Below are positions 17,657 to 54,855 of a stretch of 64,000 nucleotides of DNA, piece after piece. This DNA is from Minisyncoccota bacterium (GTDB lineage Bacteria > Patescibacteriota > Minisyncoccia > Phycocordibacterales > UBA9973), in contig JBAZXM010000003.1 of the NCBI GenBank assembly GCA_041659845.1, positions 4,641 to 68,640 on the forward strand, written 5' to 3'. Numbering within the stretch: the first letter of the stretch is position 1; each line of letters starts with the position of its first letter. The position numbers and the translations under genes are program-made. The notes beneath the pieces are model-generated. The model was given only the letters and a program-made list of their open reading frames with translations, had not been told where the DNA came from and ran no database searches.

Positions 17657-17754
17657 GTAAAGAACAGTGTGAGAAAAATCTCACTACTTAACTTTCAAAT
17701 TTATTTGTTTGTGTATGTTTCTATGTCTCTTAAATATGTGATTTTCAAATTTCC

Positions 17755-21245
<3,491 letters not shown>

Positions 21246-21586
21246 TTCCTATTAGGAAATTTAAAAACCACATAAACGTTTCTCCCACAACCGCTTGTGC
21301 GGAGAAACATACACAAACAATATCCGCCACCTCTCTCCGAGGATGACGGACCAATTTTTCTGCCTACACTGCGGCTCAAAAGACCCAAAAATCATTTCAT
21401 TATTCCATAAATGGACTAATGAAACGATAATTTGCAATGCGACAGAATGAAGTTATCAAATATCGAGCCGTGCAGTCATTTTTTAACTAAAAATACCCCT
21501 TTCGGGGCAGAAAATAAAAAACCTTAGAGGTCTCTCAATTTCTCCGCCCGAAGAAATAATTAGTCATATTCATATCAGTAATTGCC

Positions 21587-45058: not shown

Positions 45059-48000
45059 TTAAGGTATTATTGGTTCAGGATTAGAAATTGGTGCTGGGTC
45101 GGGAGTGGGAGCAGGATCAGATTCCTCAATTGGAGGAGTGATTGGGTCTGGCACAGGGTCAGAAATTGGTGCAGGATCAGGAGTTGGTGCAGGGTCCGGG
45201 GCTGGAGATGGATCTTGATAAGATTGATTAGTATTACAATCACCCGCTGTTTGAGAGAGTGATCCGTTTTTTATTTTTATACAATATAAAGTTCCAGTAT
45301 CTTCATCTTTGAGTTCAATCTTATCAAATGTTCCCTTTTGTGCGGTAATTGTATTCGCAATCAATTCCTGCACCCTCACAACCCCATTCACAATCTTCTC
45401 CTCAGTACTAAATAGATAATCCATGATGAGTTTCTTCAGAGTTGAGGAACCTGTTCCATCATCGAGAGTTTCAAGACCCTTGAGACGGAGATCCAGTGCT
45501 TGCACTGAACCCATGAGTAAGCCGTTGACTGAAACTTGATCGATGGAATTGCCTTGCATAAATAGCGGATCGACTTCGTCAGCAATGAATCCGAGGTGAG
45601 CTTTAGAAAGAGGGTTATCAGTACCGTAGCCTTGTACTTCTTTGATGTAACGGAACATTCTTAGTGGTGCAGAAACAACTTTATCAAGAGCTTGCGATGG
45701 ATCTGTGTATGGGGTGATGTCTTGTTTGGTATCTCTGGTTGATGTTTGATCTCCCACAACTACGCCTGCTGTGTCATTGGCATTCGTTGGAGCGGCGGTG
45801 TGTATGCGGAGCTTGCCGGCTGCGTCTTGCCATGTATAACCTGCGGTGCCAGTATTACTTTGAAAGTTGATGGAGCCTGCGCCGGGAGTAGCGTTGGTGT
45901 TGCGGCCGAGGGTGAGGACTGGGCCGGCGGCGCCGGAGCCGAAGTCGTTGTTGGCAAATGTAATATCGCCTGTATTTGTAATTCGCATTCTTTCAATCAA
46001 AGTTCCTCCTGTTGCTGTTGAGAAGTATATTGACCCTGCATTTTCAGCTGTTCCAAAATTTTCTAGCCCTATTCTGGCTGTATTCACAGGAGTAGTTGCT
46101 CCAACCCACCAGTTCAAGCCGTTCAAATCTGCTCCGTTAGATATAGCGTCTGAGTTAGACCAGAATTCCATTACTGGAAGAACAGAGTTGGCATTAGTTA
46201 TAGTAATACCCCTAAATCCTGCACCTGCTTTGATTGGAGTAGTGGTCCCGATACCCAAATTCCCCGTACTCCCCTGCACAAACAGAGAAGAAGTTCCGGA
46301 GGAATTCGTGAAGTTCGCAGTAGATCTGTGAATAGTATAAGTTTCTCCGGTTACTCCGGCTGTGAATGCAGGAGTGATTGTGAATGACGTACCTGTTGCT
46401 GTTGTGACTATTGCACGAGCTTGGCCAGTGGTGGTGGTAGGGATAATGTAATCGCCTGCGTTTAGGGTGACACTAGATGATGTGGTGAATGTGGTAGCTG
46501 TGTCTACTGCGGTCATTGTGACAGCTCCGCTGGATGTAGTACCTCCGAGTGTTTGGAGTTGAGCGGTAGGAGTGGTGGTGCCGATGCCGACGTTGCCGGC
46601 AGAATCTATTCGCATTCTTTCTGTACCTGTATTCGTTCCTGTTGGGGTGGTATAAAACATCAAACGACCAGGCATACTACCAACCCCCGGCACTCCATCA
46701 ACTGATGAACGAATCAATGCTGATTGTTGAAAAGTTACACCATCAGAACCTTGAAATTCTAATTCACCAATATTGTCAGCATTATTGACTATCGTTTGTC
46801 CGCCCTTAGTTGCCGAACGAGAAAATTGAAGTTTTAAACGAGAACTTCCGTTAGTATTACTAAAAAAACCTAAACGTAAAGCTCTAGTAGCACTAGTGTT
46901 TGATTGAATATCAAGAATTTCTGTCGGTGCTGTTGTACCGATGCCCATATTCCCTGCACTATCTATTCTCATTCTCTCAGTCAAAACACTTGGCGAAGCA
47001 TCAGTAGCTGTCGAAAAAGAGACATTTGTTGGAACTCTGTCAGTTCCTATCGTACCTTCCGCGGCGAAGTCAATCGAGCCCATTTGCTTAAAATTAGTTC
47101 CGTCATATCCTTCTGCAACAAAAGATGTCAACCTATCCCCAGTAACTATTGTTGTCGGAATTGCTTCTGTGCCTCTGGCTTTTCTTCCAAGAAAAATAGA
47201 GCCAAGTGTATTAGTAGAATATTGAGCAGACATTATACCTCGAACCGCCACTGCTGTAGTTTCTGAAACATGAATTTTTGATAATGGTGCTGTCGTGCCA
47301 ATACCAACATTCCCCATGATATTCATTCCCCCTTGGTAGATGTTGTTTAGAGAAATTGCAATGTAGTCGGTTTTGCCGGAGGTCATGACGCGATTGCCTG
47401 TTCCTGTGTTGGAGACGGCGACGAACATGCCGTTGCCATAAGTAATGCCTTCCCAAATATTGTCAGCAACGCTAGTGCGCGTTACCCATGTAATACCATC
47501 AGGTGAAGTCATGACGCGGTTGCCTGTGCCAGAAGCACCTATTGCAACAAACAGACCGTTACCATATGTAATACCAAACCAACTGTTGTCCGCTGCACTT
47601 GTTCTACTTGTCCATGTGATGCCGTCCGGTGAGGTCATGACGCGGTCGGAGGTGCCGGTGTTTGAAACCGCCACAAAGAGACCGTTACCATAGGTTACTG
47701 CAATCCAGTTGTTATCTACTGCACTTGTTCTACTTGTCCATGTAATACCATCAGGTGAAGTCATGACGCGGTTGCCGGAGCCGGTAGTAGATACCGCAAC
47801 AAACAATCCATTGCCGTAGGTGACACCAAGCCAGCTATTATCCGCTGCGCTTGTGCGGGATGTCCACGTAATGCCGTCAGGTGAGGTCATGACGCGGTTG
47901 CCGGAGCCGGTAGAAGCCACTGCAACAAAAAGTCCGTTACTGTAAGTGACATCACGCCAGGTATTATCTGCTGCACTTGTGCGGGATGTCCAGGTGATGC

Positions 48001-48448
48001 CGTCAGGTGAGGTCATGACGCGGTTGCTAGTGCCATCAGCAGAGATCGCAACAAAAAGTCCGTTGCCGTAAGTAATGCCAACCCATTGATTATCTACAGC
48101 ACTTGTACGAATAGTCCAGTTGATGCCATCAGGTGAAGTCATGACGCGGTTTCCGGAGCCAGTACCTGCTACCGCTACAAAAAGTCCATTTCCATAAGCC
48201 ACATTATTCCACTCATTATCCGCTGCGCTGGTGCGTGAAGTCCAGCTCGTACCCTTGGAAAGAGTATTACTGACATCTACAGTGCAGTCTACTGATCCCG
48301 GGGTACAATTGGGATCTAGTGTTTGACCAGGAGAGAATGATGCTAGGAGTTGTAATCCTGAGGAGAAGATCGCAAATGAAGCAAGCGAAACGATAAGAAT
48401 GGAGTTTCGTTTGAAAAAGAGTTTGGTATGTTTAAAAATAGTTGACAT
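45059..48448 (-). CDS. large secreted protein with eight BNR/Asp-box beta-propeller repeats, Thr/Gly-rich middle, C-terminal intramolecular-chaperone (peptidase S74, phage tail-fibre type) domain and Pro-rich tail
   Basis: Eight copies of MTSPDGITWTSRTSAADNxWxGVTYGNGLFVAV (SxDxGxTW Asp-box). The C-terminal block TRDTKQDITPY..LRMFRYIKEVQGYGTD..AHLGFIADEV..LDLRLKGLE resembles endosialidase-chaperone domains. Tail is PAPDPAPTPDP. Confidence 0.7.
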   Translation of the reverse strand: MSTIFKHTKLFFKRNSILIVSLASFAIFSSGLQLLASFSPGQTLDPNCTPGSVDCTVDVSNTLSKGTSWTSRTSAADNEWNNVAYGNGLFVAVAGTGSGNRVMTSPDGINWTIRTSAVDNQWVGITYGNGLFVAISADGTSNRVMTSPDGITWTSRTSAADNTWRDVTYSNGLFVAVASTGSGNRVMTSPDGITWTSRTSAADNSWLGVTYGNGLFVAVSTTGSGNRVMTSPDGITWTSRTSAVDNNWIAVTYGNGLFVAVSNTGTSDRVMTSPDGITWTSRTSAADNSWFGITYGNGLFVAIGASGTGNRVMTSPDGITWVTRTSVADNIWEGITYGNGMFVAVSNTGTGNRVMTSGKTDYIAISLNNIYQGGMNIMGNVGIGTTAPLSKIHVSETTAVAVRGIMSAQYSTNTLGSIFLGRKARGTEAIPTTIVTGDRLTSFVAEGYDGTNFKQMGSIDFAAEGTIGTDRVPTNVSFSTATDASPSVLTERMRIDSAGNMGIGTTAPTEILDIQSNTSATRALRLGFFSNTNGSSRLKLQFSRSATKGGQTIVNNADNIGELEFQGSDGVTFQQSALIRSSVDGVPGVGSMPGRLMFYTTPTGTNTGTERMRIDSAGNVGIGTTTPTAQLQTLGGTTSSGAVTMTAVDTATTFTTSSSVTLNAGDYIIPTTTTGQARAIVTTATGTSFTITPAFTAGVTGETYTIHRSTANFTNSSGTSSLFVQGSTGNLGIGTTTPIKAGAGFRGITITNANSVLPVMEFWSNSDAISNGADLNGLNWWVGATTPVNTARIGLENFGTAENAGSIYFSTATGGTLIERMRITNTGDITFANNDFGSGAAGPVLTLGRNTNATPGAGSINFQSNTGTAGYTWQDAAGKLRIHTAAPTNANDTAGVVVGDQTSTRDTKQDITPYTDPSQALDKVVSAPLRMFRYIKEVQGYGTDNPLSKAHLGFIADEVDPLFMQGNSIDQVSVNGLLMGSVQALDLRLKGLETLDDGTGSSTLKKLIMDYLFSTEEKIVNGVVRVQELIANTITAQKGTFDKIELKDEDTGTLYCIKIKNGSLSQTAGDCNTNQSYQDPSPAPDPAPTPDPAPISDPVPDPITPPIEESDPAPTPDPAPISNPEPIIP

Positions 48449-52001: not shown

Positions 52002-53279
52002 CTATTTATTACTGAACGAAAGAATGGATTTGAATGCCTTTTGATCTTTAAACGGTCCGATTAAAGCAAAATTTAGATAGCGATTCGTGAATATTTCTTT
52101 TGCTAGACGCATGATTTCAGGTGCAGTGACTGAGCGGATTTTCTTAGCGATTTCTAGAGGTGTTTCAATCTTCTTTTTTAAAATCTCCTGCCCGCCTGTG
52201 AAATTCGCCAGAGAATCCGAAGATTCTAGTTCCAAATGCAAATTGCCTATCATGTAATCTTTAACTTTTTTAAGCTCATCTTCAAGTACCGGCTCTTTTA
52301 TTAAGCGCGTGCACTCGGCGAGGATTTCTTTCACTACTTCCGGTACGCGCTTCACATCAACACCGGCAGAAATTTCCAAAAATCCATGGTCGGTATACGC
52401 ATCATTCATGGAACGTACGTAGTAAGCAACACCCATTTCTTCGCGAAGCTTTTGGAATAATCTAGAGCTCATCCCCCCAGCAAGGATTGTCGATAGTACA
52501 TTCAATATGGGATTCTTTTTATTTAAAATATCATAAGCACGGACACCAAGTACAAAGTGTGCTTGGTCTGTTTTTTTATACTGCACAAATACTTGCGGAT
52601 TTGACTGTGTATCCTTAACACGAAGCTTGCCACCTTTAGAACTTACCCTTATTGGAGCGAAGTATTTCTCAACTTCCTTGACTGCTTCTTTTTCAGTTAT
52701 CGCGCCTGATACGACGACAGTAGTCGCTTTAGCCACATAGTGCATTTTTTTATATTCCACAAAATCATCACGCTTCATTTTTCGAATATTCTCTCTCGGC
52801 CCCGCTATACTCCAACCTGCCGGCTGATCGCCGTAAAGCAAAGATAAAAATAATTCTTGCACATGGCTCTGAGGCATATCTTCGTACATATTTATCTCTT
52901 CGATAATTACGCCTTTTTCTTTCTCCATTTCAGCTTCTGGAAACGTTGAGTGTAAATAAATATCTGAAACGACGTCCAAAATTTTTTTGAAATGCTTCTT
53001 TTCACTCTTGGCATAGTAGCCTGTGTATTCTTGCGAAGTGAAAGCATTGTATTGGCAACCAAGACTATCAAGCTCACGCGAAATCGCCATAGCTGTCGGG
53101 CGCTTCACGGTACCCTTGAAGCACATATGCTCCAAGAAGTGAGAAATGCCGTTTAATTTCTTTGTCTCGTATTTTGAACCGGTTTCTACTAGTACAAGTA
53201 CCGTTACCGTTGGATTATCCTTCATCGGCACAGTAATAATCCTCATCCCGTTCTTTAAAATTTTTTTCTTGAATTGCAT
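52002..53279 (-). CDS. M16-family (insulinase-like) zinc peptidase
   Basis: HFLEHMCFKGT inverted zinc-binding motif (HxxEH). Confidence 0.85.
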   Translation of the reverse strand: MQFKKKILKNGMRIITVPMKDNPTVTVLVLVETGSKYETKKLNGISHFLEHMCFKGTVKRPTAMAISRELDSLGCQYNAFTSQEYTGYYAKSEKKHFKKILDVVSDIYLHSTFPEAEMEKEKGVIIEEINMYEDMPQSHVQELFLSLLYGDQPAGWSIAGPRENIRKMKRDDFVEYKKMHYVAKATTVVVSGAITEKEAVKEVEKYFAPIRVSSKGGKLRVKDTQSNPQVFVQYKKTDQAHFVLGVRAYDILNKKNPILNVLSTILAGGMSSRLFQKLREEMGVAYYVRSMNDAYTDHGFLEISAGVDVKRVPEVVKEILAECTRLIKEPVLEDELKKVKDYMIGNLHLELESSDSLANFTGGQEILKKKIETPLEIAKKIRSVTAPEIMRLAKEIFTNRYLNFALIGPFKDQKAFKSILSFSNK

Positions 53280-53324
53280 AAGAAAAATATACCACAAAAT
53301 ACTTAAAAATACTTATTTAATAAA

Positions 53325-53361
53325 TCGCACTATATCTACGCTATAGCGTAATAATAGCGCG
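53325..53361. promoter_or_regulatory. imperfect palindrome containing ACGCTATAGCGT (operator copy 2)
   Basis: cgcactatatctACGCTATAGCGTaataatagcgcg, between the regulator gene's 3' end and the M16 peptidase start. Confidence 0.45.
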
Positions 53362-53389
53362 GTATGAAATAAGTACTAAAAAATTAACG

Positions 53390-53974
53390 CTACTTGAGAT
53401 TAAAAGCTTCTATGAGTGGTTTATCGTATTCTATTTTTTCCGCAATGACATAGAGGACATCTTTGCCTATTTTGAAATCAGCCTTAAGTAGAGTAATTAA
53501 ATCCTCGCAATCGTAAGGATAAATCCACACACTGTCTTGCAGGCGAATAAAACCGATTTGTAAAAGCGTACGCCTGATTTTATCGCGAGTACCTTTGCGT
53601 TCTTCCTTGATGTCGAAAATAAGCATTCGCCATTTACCGTCCCATCGTTTTGGTTTTTTGATTTTATAATCGCGCAATTCCAGTTGTCGCATTTTCGCCT
53701 CCCCTTTTCCAGTAAGACTAATAAAAGTTCCTTTTGGTGTTTTTTCAAAAATTATCAAACCATTCTCTTTTAATCTTGATACTGATCGATTGAACGAGTA
53801 CTTTCTGCTCTGTCTTTTCATAAACTCCGGTTCAAATTTCGCAAGCAGTTTTGTCATTTTGGGAGCAGATAAAGCAATACTTAACATCCCAACACTATAA
53901 ATAGTGGCCAAAATAATTTTTTGTATATTTGCCTTTCTGTTTCTTTGACGAACTTCTTTTTCTAAATTACCCAT
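53390..53974 (-). CDS. putative transcriptional regulator: N-terminal winged-helix plus C-terminal Cas2-fold/PaaX-like domain
   Basis: N-terminal region LSRLKENGLIIFEKTPKGTFISLTGKGEAK is wHTH-like. C-terminal WRMLIFDIKEERKGTRDKIRRTLLQIGFIRLQDSVWIYPYD matches the Cas2/PaaX-C beta-alpha-beta pattern. Confidence 0.45.
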   Translation of the reverse strand: MGNLEKEVRQRNRKANIQKIILATIYSVGMLSIALSAPKMTKLLAKFEPEFMKRQSRKYSFNRSVSRLKENGLIIFEKTPKGTFISLTGKGEAKMRQLELRDYKIKKPKRWDGKWRMLIFDIKEERKGTRDKIRRTLLQIGFIRLQDSVWIYPYDCEDLITLLKADFKIGKDVLYVIAEKIEYDKPLIEAFNLK

Positions 53975-53992
53975 TGCATAATTCTAGCATCT

Positions 53993-54026
53993 GCGCTATT
54001 TATACGCTATAGCGTATAAATAGCGC
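53993..54026. promoter_or_regulatory. perfect 34-bp palindrome GCGCTATTTATACGCTATAGCGTATAAATAGCGC (operator copy 1)
   Basis: Lies 19-52 nt upstream of the regulator start codon. Contains TATTTAT and TATAAAT boxes. Confidence 0.55.
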
Positions 54027-54081
54027 AGAGAGTACTTTCATACTTTCAGAGTTTTATTATAATCATGTTATATGATAATGA

Positions 54082-54855
54082 CTATTTGTGTTTTATTCCC
54101 TGTTTTTTAAATGCTTCGTATGTCTCTGGGCTGATAACCTTAGCATGACCAGTTGAATCATAATATACATACTGCCCCTTCCCGCCCGAGAGGTTTGTCG
54201 TATTCGGCTCATAATCAATCATGTTTTTTATTTCTCCTTGTTTTGTGTCTTGGATTTCTGCTTTTTTAATTTTTGGAGAAATAACTTCCTGAATTTTTTT
54301 CTCAGGCTCTGTCTCAACTTTTGTTTCCGGTTTATATATTATCTTCTGAGCTGGTTTTTTATAAAAAAATTCAGTAACATATTTTCCTTTGCCTTCTGGT
54401 AGTGACTCCGATGTAACAGAACTGAACCCTGGATGTGTTGGTTTAGGTTCTTTTTTGTTTTTTAATTTTAATTTATCAAACGCTTTTTTAAATTTTTTGT
54501 AAACAGACTGAGAATTACGCCATACCTCATAATTTGCCTTGGTTGAATGTTCAATTTTTATAGGTTCCAGATTGTTGTGTTTTTTTACCAAATCAACTAA
54601 ATCACCTGCGATATTATATAAATTTAGACTATCACGATATGTTTCTAATCTCGAATCATTTGGGTCATGTGTAATTATGGTGCCTTGGGGAATTTTGTCT
54701 TTGGTTTGAGCGTGAGATTCCTTAGACGGTAAAACGCTGGCAAGCATGGCAATGCCGGCTAAAGCGAATTTACGAGCAGTTTTTCCTAAACCTGATTTTT
54801 GTTCTAGTTTTTTCTCTTCTGGTTGTTCAGCTTCAATTTTAGGAAAATTTTCCAT
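54082..54855 (-). CDS. hypothetical secreted Lys-rich protein
   Basis: 257-aa ORF with signal/TM near the N-terminus. Confidence 0.5.
   Translation of the reverse strand: MENFPKIEAEQPEEKKLEQKSGLGKTARKFALAGIAMLASVLPSKESHAQTKDKIPQGTIITHDPNDSRLETYRDSLNLYNIAGDLVDLVKKHNNLEPIKIEHSTKANYEVWRNSQSVYKKFKKAFDKLKLKNKKEPKPTHPGFSSVTSESLPEGKGKYVTEFFYKKPAQKIIYKPETKVETEPEKKIQEVISPKIKKAEIQDTKQGEIKNMIDYEPNTTNLSGGKGQYVYYDSTGHAKVISPETYEAFKKQGIKHK

Follow-up and report, generated by a model that had tools for sequence, protein, structure and literature searches.

What is the function of a short gene that lies between two copies of one palindrome? The question is raised by a 64,000-nucleotide (nt) stretch of the Minisyncoccota bacterium assembly GCA_041659845.1 (contig JBAZXM010000003.1, positions 4,641 to 68,640 of the forward strand), here called the window, in which a gene for a 194-amino-acid (aa) protein precedes an M16 peptidase gene. 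An earlier note, made from the letters of the DNA, had taken the gene for an autoregulated repressor that also controls the peptidase. We found that the gene belongs to a family whose members are framed by two copies of a lineage-specific, approximately 40-bp bipartite palindrome. The reading that we prefer, with a probability of roughly 0.6, is that the product would repress its own gene as a PaaX-like dimer, with a first operator that overlaps a leaderless promoter, the second site being an auxiliary operator and not a dedicated operator of the peptidase. The gene and the parts of its product are located as follows.

53390 to 53974, minus strand: regulator gene, encoding a short PaaX-like protein of 194 aa (open reading frame [ORF], Pfam PaaX_M match, and PDB 8a39 match)
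53675 to 53974, minus strand: PadR/PaaX-type winged-helix DNA-binding domain, residues approximately 1 to 100
53765 to 53812, minus strand: predicted recognition helix, residues 55 to 70, the wing being formed by residues 74 to 87
53426 to 53650, minus strand: Cas2-fold (PaaX_M) domain, residues 109 to 183, with the order β-α-β-β-α-β

The protein is 100% identical to a protein of a Candidatus Paceibacterota metagenome-assembled genome (MAG) in NCBI, and its ORF translation carries WRMLIFDIKEERKGTRDKIRRTLLQIGFIRLQDSVWIYPYD at residues 115 to 155. Residues 109 to 183 match Pfam PF20803 PaaX_M ("PaaX central Cas2-like domain") with an E value of 1.9e-21 and 76.3 bits against a gathering cut-off of 24, and the closest solved relative by sequence is E. 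coli PaaX (PDB 8a39; E value of 2.7e-5 over residues 64 to 163, including the WDGKW motif). A first AlphaFold2 model was mediocre (mean confidence score [pLDDT], 69.6), and a second one, built on a 97-sequence alignment, reached a pLDDT of 81.6, with more than 90 in the C-terminal domain. Its fold matches those of PaaX relatives, namely, 8a39 and the PaaX-like structures 3l09 and 3kfw (Rv0674). The winged-helix N-terminus and the Cas2/PaaX-type C-terminal half described in the earlier note were thus confirmed by Pfam, by the 8a39 match, and by fold comparison. PaaX is the repressor of phenylacetate catabolism in E. coli and Pseudomonas, and its Cas2-fold domain is a dimerization module.

Like PaaX, the protein begins with a winged helix and continues with the Cas2-fold central domain. 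Unlike PaaX, which has 316 aa, it lacks a C-terminal helical domain of approximately 120 aa; indeed, Pfam gave no PaaX_C match, and the chain stops 11 residues past the PaaX_M match. The PaaX equivalog model of NCBIfam, TIGR02277, scored 55.7 bits against a cut-off of 264.55 and covered only profile positions 39 to 139 of 279. Besides, no paa genes were found near the regulator in the window or near the 80 relatives described below. A further difference is D121, which aligns with the catalytic Asp of Cas2 at the end of strand 1, whereas E. coli PaaX and Rv0674 carry Ser or Thr at this position. D121, R116, R130, W150, and P153 were invariant in 97 sequences that are 33 to 76% identical to the query.

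With Cas2, a subunit of CRISPR adaptation, and VapD, a toxin-type endoribonuclease, the protein shares the ferredoxin-like β-α-β-β-α-β fold, the invariant Asp ending strand 1, and the pattern "hydrophobic strand-D-I/V ... Q-x-S-V-aromatic." In contrast to Cas2, which stands alone with approximately 90 to 110 aa, it has a fused winged helix of 100 aa, and no cas1, CRISPR array, or VapX-like partner was observed beside the family genes in the window or at the 80 loci. We also confirmed the earlier statement that the window holds no CRISPR array or other cas genes, and found neither a second family member nor any other Cas-like match there. The protein is therefore a short PaaX-like variant: it is not PaaX proper, because the PaaX C-terminal domain and the paa gene context are missing, and it is not Cas2, because it lacks a cas/CRISPR context and is fused to a winged helix. 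The use of a Cas2 fold outside CRISPR, which the earlier note had proposed, is hence real, but it was overstated as a novelty, since it is already established for PaaX (by the Pfam family name and PDB 8a39). PadR proteins dimerize through one or more C-terminal helices; the protein has the Cas2-fold domain in their place, and it gave no PadR match in Pfam. A hydrophobic stretch at residues 17 to 37 was considered as a membrane helix and rejected, as it aligns with helices 1 and 2 of PadR-type winged helices. Domain searches returned the winged helix-turn-helix and PaaX_M/Cas2-like domains only, an HUH/Y1 (IS200/IS605-type) transposase not being among them; there was no PHROG match, and PADLOC gave only weak Cas2 profiles.

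The protein belongs to a large and uniform family of short PaaX-like proteins of approximately 190 aa, apparently specific to Patescibacteria, each with a PadR/PaaX-type winged helix joined to a Cas2-fold domain. A word-indexed search gave 2225 relatives, the best 120 of which were all 189 to 204 aa long, and the sources that name an organism for family members give Patescibacteria lineages. An exhaustive profile search, clustered at 50% identity, yielded 453, 2577, and 5025 clusters at E values of ≤1e-30, ≤1e-10, and ≤1e-3, respectively, the last set probably taking in PaaX proper and Cas2 as well. Among the best 150 clusters, nearly all proteins had approximately 170 to 260 aa and most aligned over nearly the whole profile, with two shorter members that are probably truncated. 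Several MAGs contain at least two paralogues each. As for naming, many members are called "CRISPR-associated endonuclease Cas2" by PGAP or IMG, and others are called "PaaX" or "hypothetical." The Cas2 model NCBIfam TIGR01573 scored 24.8 bits against its cut-off of 24.5 with the window protein, over profile positions 3 to 39 of 96 only, which explains the widespread misannotation as Cas2.

The second component of the locus is the pair of palindromes, which have the following positions.

53990 to 54029, no strand: site 1, perfect 40-bp palindrome TCTGCGCTATTTATACGCTA/TAGCGTATAAATAGCGCAGA, with 20-nt arms, 100% complementary, and no loop
53327 to 53360, no strand: site 2, GCACTATATCTACGCTATAGCGTAATAATAGCGC, a 34-nt copy of site 1 (29/34 identical) that is itself an imperfect palindrome
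53310 to 53375, minus strand: 66-nt extended inverted repeat enclosing site 2, followed by UUUUU on the transcribed strand

The perfect 34-bp palindrome that the earlier note had placed 19 to 52 nt upstream of the start codon (GCGCTATTTATACGCTATAGCGTATAAATAGCGC, 53993 to 54026, upstream of the ATG at 53974) is indeed there, inside a perfect palindrome that actually extends to 40 bp. Likewise, its degenerate copy before the peptidase gene proved to be more than a 23-nt core, being a full 34-nt copy. Site 2 begins 30 nt past the regulator stop codon, and its centre lies 46 nt past it. The 14-mer core TACGCTATAGCGTA has exactly two matches in the 64 kb, both exact, where 0.14 would be expected with up to two mismatches; no third copy of the 34-mer was found in the window even with 12 substitutions allowed, and shuffled windows contained 0 to 1 palindromes of comparable score. 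When folded as RNA, site 1 gave −29.7 kcal/mol (z, −7.4), and the 66-nt repeat around site 2 gave −26.5 kcal/mol (z, −6.7). A terminator scan of the window called neither site, and Rfam returned nothing meaningful at either. It is possible that the 66-nt inverted repeat is a terminator hairpin for the regulator gene.

We compared the window locus (WIN) with 80 relative loci (L001 to L080), 41 to 69% identical to the query, which were taken from GTDB species genomes. Many relatives carry a perfect or near-perfect palindrome of 34 to 52 bp upstream, within approximately 60 nt of the start codon, with a centre that is mostly GCTATAGC and otherwise CGATCG, CGRYCG, or CCTATAGG. Nearly all carry a second, related palindrome 0 to 50 nt past the regulator stop codon. 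When the upstream flank of each gene was compared with its downstream flank, a shared 30-mer exceeded the 95th percentile of a mismatched-locus null at 69 of 76 loci. Lack of Cas2 or PaaX fold similarity, together with absence of the palindrome core upstream of orthologues, was to have refuted the earlier note; the palindrome is conserved there, so that this refutation fails, and the two-site arrangement holds for the family at large.

The two sites resemble a protein footprint. In 41 pairs of site 1 and site 2, positions 2 to 5 and 11 to 17 from the centre are 85 to 99% identical and self-complementary, whereas positions 6 to 10 vary (59 to 72% identical). Furthermore, the outer block goes with the motif of the recognition helix: GTGTA with xRSRDRL, AACGTA with FIxxSRxRL or YxSSSASKL, and AATAG with YSFNRSxxRL, the last being the helix type of the window protein. 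This co-variation, which is confounded by phylogeny, is what direct recognition would predict. The same recognition helix occurs with different centres, which suggests that reading of the centre falls to something else. At loci with a divergent upstream gene (L019, L064, L078, L040, and L045), site 1 is still perfectly palindromic, and thus it would not be merely a terminator of that gene. As a separate observation, L022 and L064, both from one MAG (CAZYRJ01), are paralogues that are 84% identical and lie in different gene contexts; their site-1 palindromes are nearly identical and differ by one symmetric change in both arms, for which a recent duplication or a binning mixture is possible.

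How might the protein act at these sites? The position of site 1 relative to the following element bears on the answer.

53981 to 53986, minus strand: −10-like hexamer TAGAAT, read from the sequence, 6 nt before the regulator ATG (TAGAAT-TATGCA-ATG)

Site 1 covers the −35 region and stops 3 nt short of TAGAAT, with its centre 36 nt before the ATG. Of the family genes, 35% have a TANNNT hexamer at exactly 6 nt upstream of the start codon, compared with 16% of other genes and approximately 4% in the background, and Shine-Dalgarno-like motifs occur in less than 10% of genes at the 80 Paceibacterota loci. Taken together, these frequencies imply that leaderless mRNAs appear common in the clade, and the regulator mRNA in the window appears to be leaderless as well. 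A σ70-like promoter (TAGTCA-17-TATAAT, 54084 to 54056) lies upstream of site 1; we do not take it for the main promoter, since a −10 box at 6 nt from the ATG is the pattern seen across the family, and it may serve as a second promoter. In a second class of loci, site 1 is centred at −18, with the −10 hexamer inside the proximal spacer and the ATG overlapped by the outer block (..GTATG). Judged by sequence motifs, both classes have a site 1 that overlaps the core promoter, so that autorepression is the natural reading.

There is a precedent for such an arrangement. The E. coli PaaX operator, TGATTC-N27-GAATCA, spans 39 bp, and PaaX represses its own Px promoter by steric hindrance (PMC9493321). 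As far as sequence can tell, the 194-aa protein likewise has a palindromic operator of approximately 40 bp over its own promoter, whereas its operator differs from that of PaaX in an extra conserved central block, in the two framing sites, and in orphan copies at gene 3' ends. On the strength of the operator that overlaps a promoter with a −10 box 6 nt before the start, and of the PaaX precedent, it is plausible that the protein switches off its own gene, and this seems to be its most likely action; in this respect, the autoregulation proposed earlier is supported by inference.

In the mechanism that we propose, the protein would bind the approximately 40-bp bipartite palindrome as a dimer or a pair of dimers, each arm offering an inner block 2 to 5 nt and an outer block 11 to 17 nt from the centre. 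The recognition helix would read the outer block, and the Cas2-fold domain, the counterpart of the PaaX dimerization module, would hold the dimer together. Protein on site 1 would exclude RNA polymerase, resulting in negative autoregulation like that of PaaX at Px. Site 2 would most likely be an auxiliary operator that raises local occupancy or loops to site 1, approximately 670 bp away; alternatively, it may be a roadblock or a hairpin that ends the transcript.

Could the palindromes instead be structures independent of the protein, such as terminators or mRNA-stabilizing hairpins, that happen to lie beside an unrelated regulator gene? Their strong hairpin potential and 3'-proximal positions would fit this. 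However, each lineage has its own palindrome, which varies with the recognition helix of the protein encoded beside it, the two-site frame is peculiar to this gene family, and the conserved blocks are parted by a variable spacer, as in a protein footprint. Moreover, site 1 overlaps a promoter and is probably untranscribed, and a U-tract is lacking. We consider this explanation very improbable.

The claim that the protein also governs the peptidase depends on site 2 and on two further features.

52002 to 53279, minus strand: M16 peptidase gene, the downstream neighbour (Pfam Peptidase_M16, 5.2e-40; M16_C, 1e-34)
53286 to 53294, minus strand: extended −10 box TGGTATATT, 6 nt before the peptidase ATG (53279), not overlapped by site 2

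The two Pfam matches bear out the identification of the downstream gene as an M16 peptidase. If site 2 were its operator, the regulator and the peptidase would form one regulatory unit. In favour of this, site 2 sits between two co-directional genes, the arrangement is retained in L001 and L002, the closest relatives, and at several co-directional loci the proximal edge of site 2 is approximately 32 to 40 nt from the ATG, where it could touch the −35/UP region. However, among the 80 relatives compared, the peptidase follows the regulator only at the three closest loci (WIN, L001, and L002), and site 2 is found at 69 of 76 loci regardless of the next gene. The downstream gene is convergent at approximately 25 loci, and site 2 is still there, often longer and more perfect than site 1. 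What lies downstream are housekeeping genes without relation to one another, such as ThrRS, KsgA, RNase H, and ThyA. Since site 2 is present whatever gene follows, it belongs to the regulator cassette. In WIN, L001, and L002, the downstream gene has a promoter of its own, TGnTATATT at 6 nt before the ATG. The centre of site 2 in the window is 64 to 65 nt before the peptidase ATG, outside the TGGTATATT promoter; in L002 (56 to 57 nt) and L001 (73 to 74 nt) it likewise lies outside the core promoter, and the three distances are not in helical phase. Control of the peptidase through site 2 is possible but unsupported, and we find a joint regulatory unit doubtful; the peptidase gene is probably not part of the system.

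Clustering the neighbours of the 80 relatives revealed no conserved partner gene, and the idea of a peptidase regulon was downgraded. The relatives form approximately eight small synteny groups with unrelated housekeeping neighbours, which include, besides those named above, MnmA, UvrD, RecJ, RmuC, SMC, and DnaX. In the window, the regulator also has as neighbours GlyRS, an AI-2E transporter, MetRS, and an unassigned 257-aa protein. The 257-aa protein is encoded upstream of the regulator (54082 to 54855, minus strand) and gave no match in Pfam, PADLOC, or PHROG; its N-terminus includes a hydrophobic segment, so that it may be secreted or membrane anchored.

Do the palindromes occur away from the regulator gene? 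In one metagenome scan with CTATNNNTACGCTATAGCGTANNNATAG, which returned 49 contigs, the sites adjacent to a family gene number 21 (11 upstream and 10 downstream of it), and 25 sites have no such gene in their vicinity and lie ≥750 nt from a contig end (33 when sites near ends are included). A six-frame search with the family hidden Markov model (HMM) left all but one of these 25 as true orphans; hidden gene remnants beside orphan sites were thereby rejected, the search having found only one extra diverged member, L090. The orphans match the cassette sites in length and perfection, with arms of up to 28 nt, and one 38-mer is identical between site 2 of the L094 regulator and two orphans in L091, where the latter fill gaps of 53 nt and 75 nt between the convergent LeuRS/CysRS and L9/L27 genes. 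All orphans are intergenic and lie beside unrelated housekeeping genes, with a median distance of approximately 43 nt from stop codons versus approximately 125 nt from start codons. Their contexts were 14 tandem, 8 convergent, and 2 divergent, against a background of 110, 36, and 35. Because they lie near stop codons and often in convergent gaps, the orphans are not promoter operators. Copy number appears low, with roughly 2 to 3 strict orphans per gene in the metagenome scan, and there was no orphan site in the window or within ±4 kb of the 31 relatives checked.

In L087 (1314 to 3261), the outer block of an orphan at 1.2 kb from the regulator is GTCGTG, whereas the sites of the neighbouring gene itself have GGTGGG; GTCGTG recurs in site 1 of another regulator found in this sample, L085 (199 to 226). 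Sets of sites specific to one paralogue each thus appear to be interleaved in a single genome or community.

The location of the orphans brings in another explanation, namely, that the palindromes are protein-dependent gene-end elements that stop or insulate transcription at 3' ends, as a DNA roadblock, an RNA hairpin, or both, and that the protein, besides limiting its own synthesis, is a sequence-specific factor for termination or insulation. The orphans beginning a few nucleotides from stop codons and filling convergent gaps, their convergent-to-divergent ratio of 8:2 (36:35 in the background), the constant location of site 2 0 to 50 nt past the regulator stop codon, the self-complementarity retained through spacer changes, and the high stability of the sites as folded RNA would all be expected of such an element. 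Against it, the convergent enrichment comes from small numbers (one-sided P value of approximately 0.05), site 1 beside a divergent gene has nothing to terminate, and several paralogues of differing specificity in a small genome are hard to reconcile with general termination. Furthermore, no T enrichment that would give a U-tract follows site 2 at 41 loci of the family; as a canonical terminator, site 2 was therefore rejected family-wide, the UUUUU in the window being an exception. Ordinary bidirectional intrinsic terminators, consisting of an A-run, a GC-rich stem, and a T-run, are used elsewhere in the same genome (11583 to 11614, 17247 to 17284, 24283 to 24314, 25873 to 25906, and 31042 to 31081), so that the AT-rich 40-bp palindromes without a U-tract stand out. 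We regard a dedicated termination or insulation factor as unlikely.

Several observations weigh against a plain dimeric autorepressor and explain why we do not hold it more firmly. First, the orphans hug 3' ends and not promoters, which is odd for the regulon of a classical repressor. Second, where spacer positions 6 to 10 are paired in site 1 (130 cells), site 2 has 12 single-arm and 27 double-arm changes, and 23 of the 27 double-arm changes keep pairing, versus approximately 3 expected under independent arms. A plain dimer-operator model does not require such pairing-preserving changes. They may possibly reflect selected self-complementarity, as for a hairpin or cruciform, or homogenization of the arms by quasipalindrome template-switch correction, which is a known mutational process. 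Third, conservation in the family is uneven: the winged-helix region varies, whereas the Cas2-like domain hardly changes, with the near-invariant residues W111, D112, W115, R116, D121, E124, R130, Q146, S148, W150, P153, C156, E157, K164, E182, and D184. A variable DNA-binding domain next to a near-invariant, acidic-rich Cas2-like domain reverses the typical pattern of a regulator, and hints at a role of this domain beyond dimerization. Fourth, the effector-binding C-terminal domain of PaaX is missing, and no inducer can be proposed. Finally, everything said here on function, that is, binding, dimer stoichiometry, repression, and the role of site 2, is what we infer.

In yet another explanation, the locus would be a selfish cassette, or an element like the repetitive extragenic palindromes (REPs) and their REP-associated tyrosine transposases (RAYTs). 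In such a "REPtron-like" cassette, the Cas2-fold domain would be an active nuclease, the flanking palindromes would be the ends or substrates of the element (as hairpins or cruciforms), and the orphans would be spread copies or leftover solo sites. As in REP/RAYT systems, a single gene lies between two palindromic copies, and the element is lineage-specific and scattered extragenically, often in 3'-proximal or convergent positions. The lineages have their own palindromes and several paralogues per genome, and there is no conserved functional partner gene. Besides, the Asp at the catalytic position and the acidic set are nearly invariant while the DNA-binding domain diverges, and the compensatory spacer changes are compatible with a hairpin requirement.

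Other evidence argues against such a cassette. In contrast to RAYTs, the protein is not an HUH/Y1 transposase, and the palindromes are long and perfect. Copy number appears low, with none beyond the frame in the 64 kb and no third copy within ±4 kb at 31 loci. Synteny, filled-versus-empty comparison, and centre polarity gave no evidence of mobility: the cassettes occupy stable syntenic positions among relatives 70 to 90% identical, no identical copies were seen within a genome, and a comparison of orphan-site with regulator neighbours found no matching pair of filled and empty sites in the same geometry. Asymmetric centres were direct in five cases and inverted in five, which gives no terminal-inverted-repeat polarity; with an overall identity of 1300 for direct and 1281 for inverted orientation, a mobile cassette with terminal inverted repeats or cut at the centre was rejected. 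Neither family relatives nor sites were found in viral contigs, and template-switch correction could yield the symmetric spacer changes without any function. Such a cassette thus seems to us quite improbable.

A more general possibility unites these last two ideas. The family may be something other than an ordinary regulator. A palindrome/protein system unique to Patescibacteria, in which a Cas2-fold domain, still catalytic or otherwise active, is targeted by a rapidly diversifying winged helix to the long, perfect palindromes that frame its own gene, would take the form either of a REPtron-like element with a Cas2-fold nuclease or of a protein-dependent terminator or insulator. We see a small chance of this, both forms taken together. 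If true, a free-living Cas2 relative would thereby be shown to target DNA, and the palindromes would mark the 3' ends of housekeeping genes.

To our knowledge, Patescibacteria, also called the candidate phyla radiation (CPR), have tiny genomes with very few recognizable regulators, and the control of their transcription is almost unstudied. The present analysis defines a large uniform family (453 clusters at the strictest threshold) together with its probable DNA target, describes a conserved self-framing architecture, gives evidence for common leaderless promoters in the clade, and offers ready pairs of protein and operator for biochemistry. It also corrects an annotation error, as the systematic naming of family members as Cas2 would inflate CRISPR-Cas counts in CPR genomes. 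The orphan 3'-end sites and the near-invariant Cas2-like domain with its Asp, if functional, bear on the origin of the Cas2 fold and on its roles outside CRISPR. A literature search found no paper combining PaaX with Cas2, VapD, or CPR terms. In the literature searched, the size and uniformity of this CPR family, the 40-bp palindrome that co-varies with the recognition helix, the near-universal two-site framing, and the 3'-end orphans appear to be undescribed.

Two further features of the window are unrelated to the regulator. A tandem repeat at 47486 to 48244, with a unit of 126 nt (42 codons), approximately 5.7 copies, and 76% matches, probably encodes a repeat-domain protein. The 23S rRNA gene (17753 to 21254, minus strand) is 3502 nt long compared with the 2925-nt Rfam model, which corresponds to approximately 580 nt of insertions; insertions in rRNA genes are common in CPR. 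Inside this gene, there are two long palindromes, at 18386 to 18429 and 19949 to 20006, both of which contain ATAAATCTTT.

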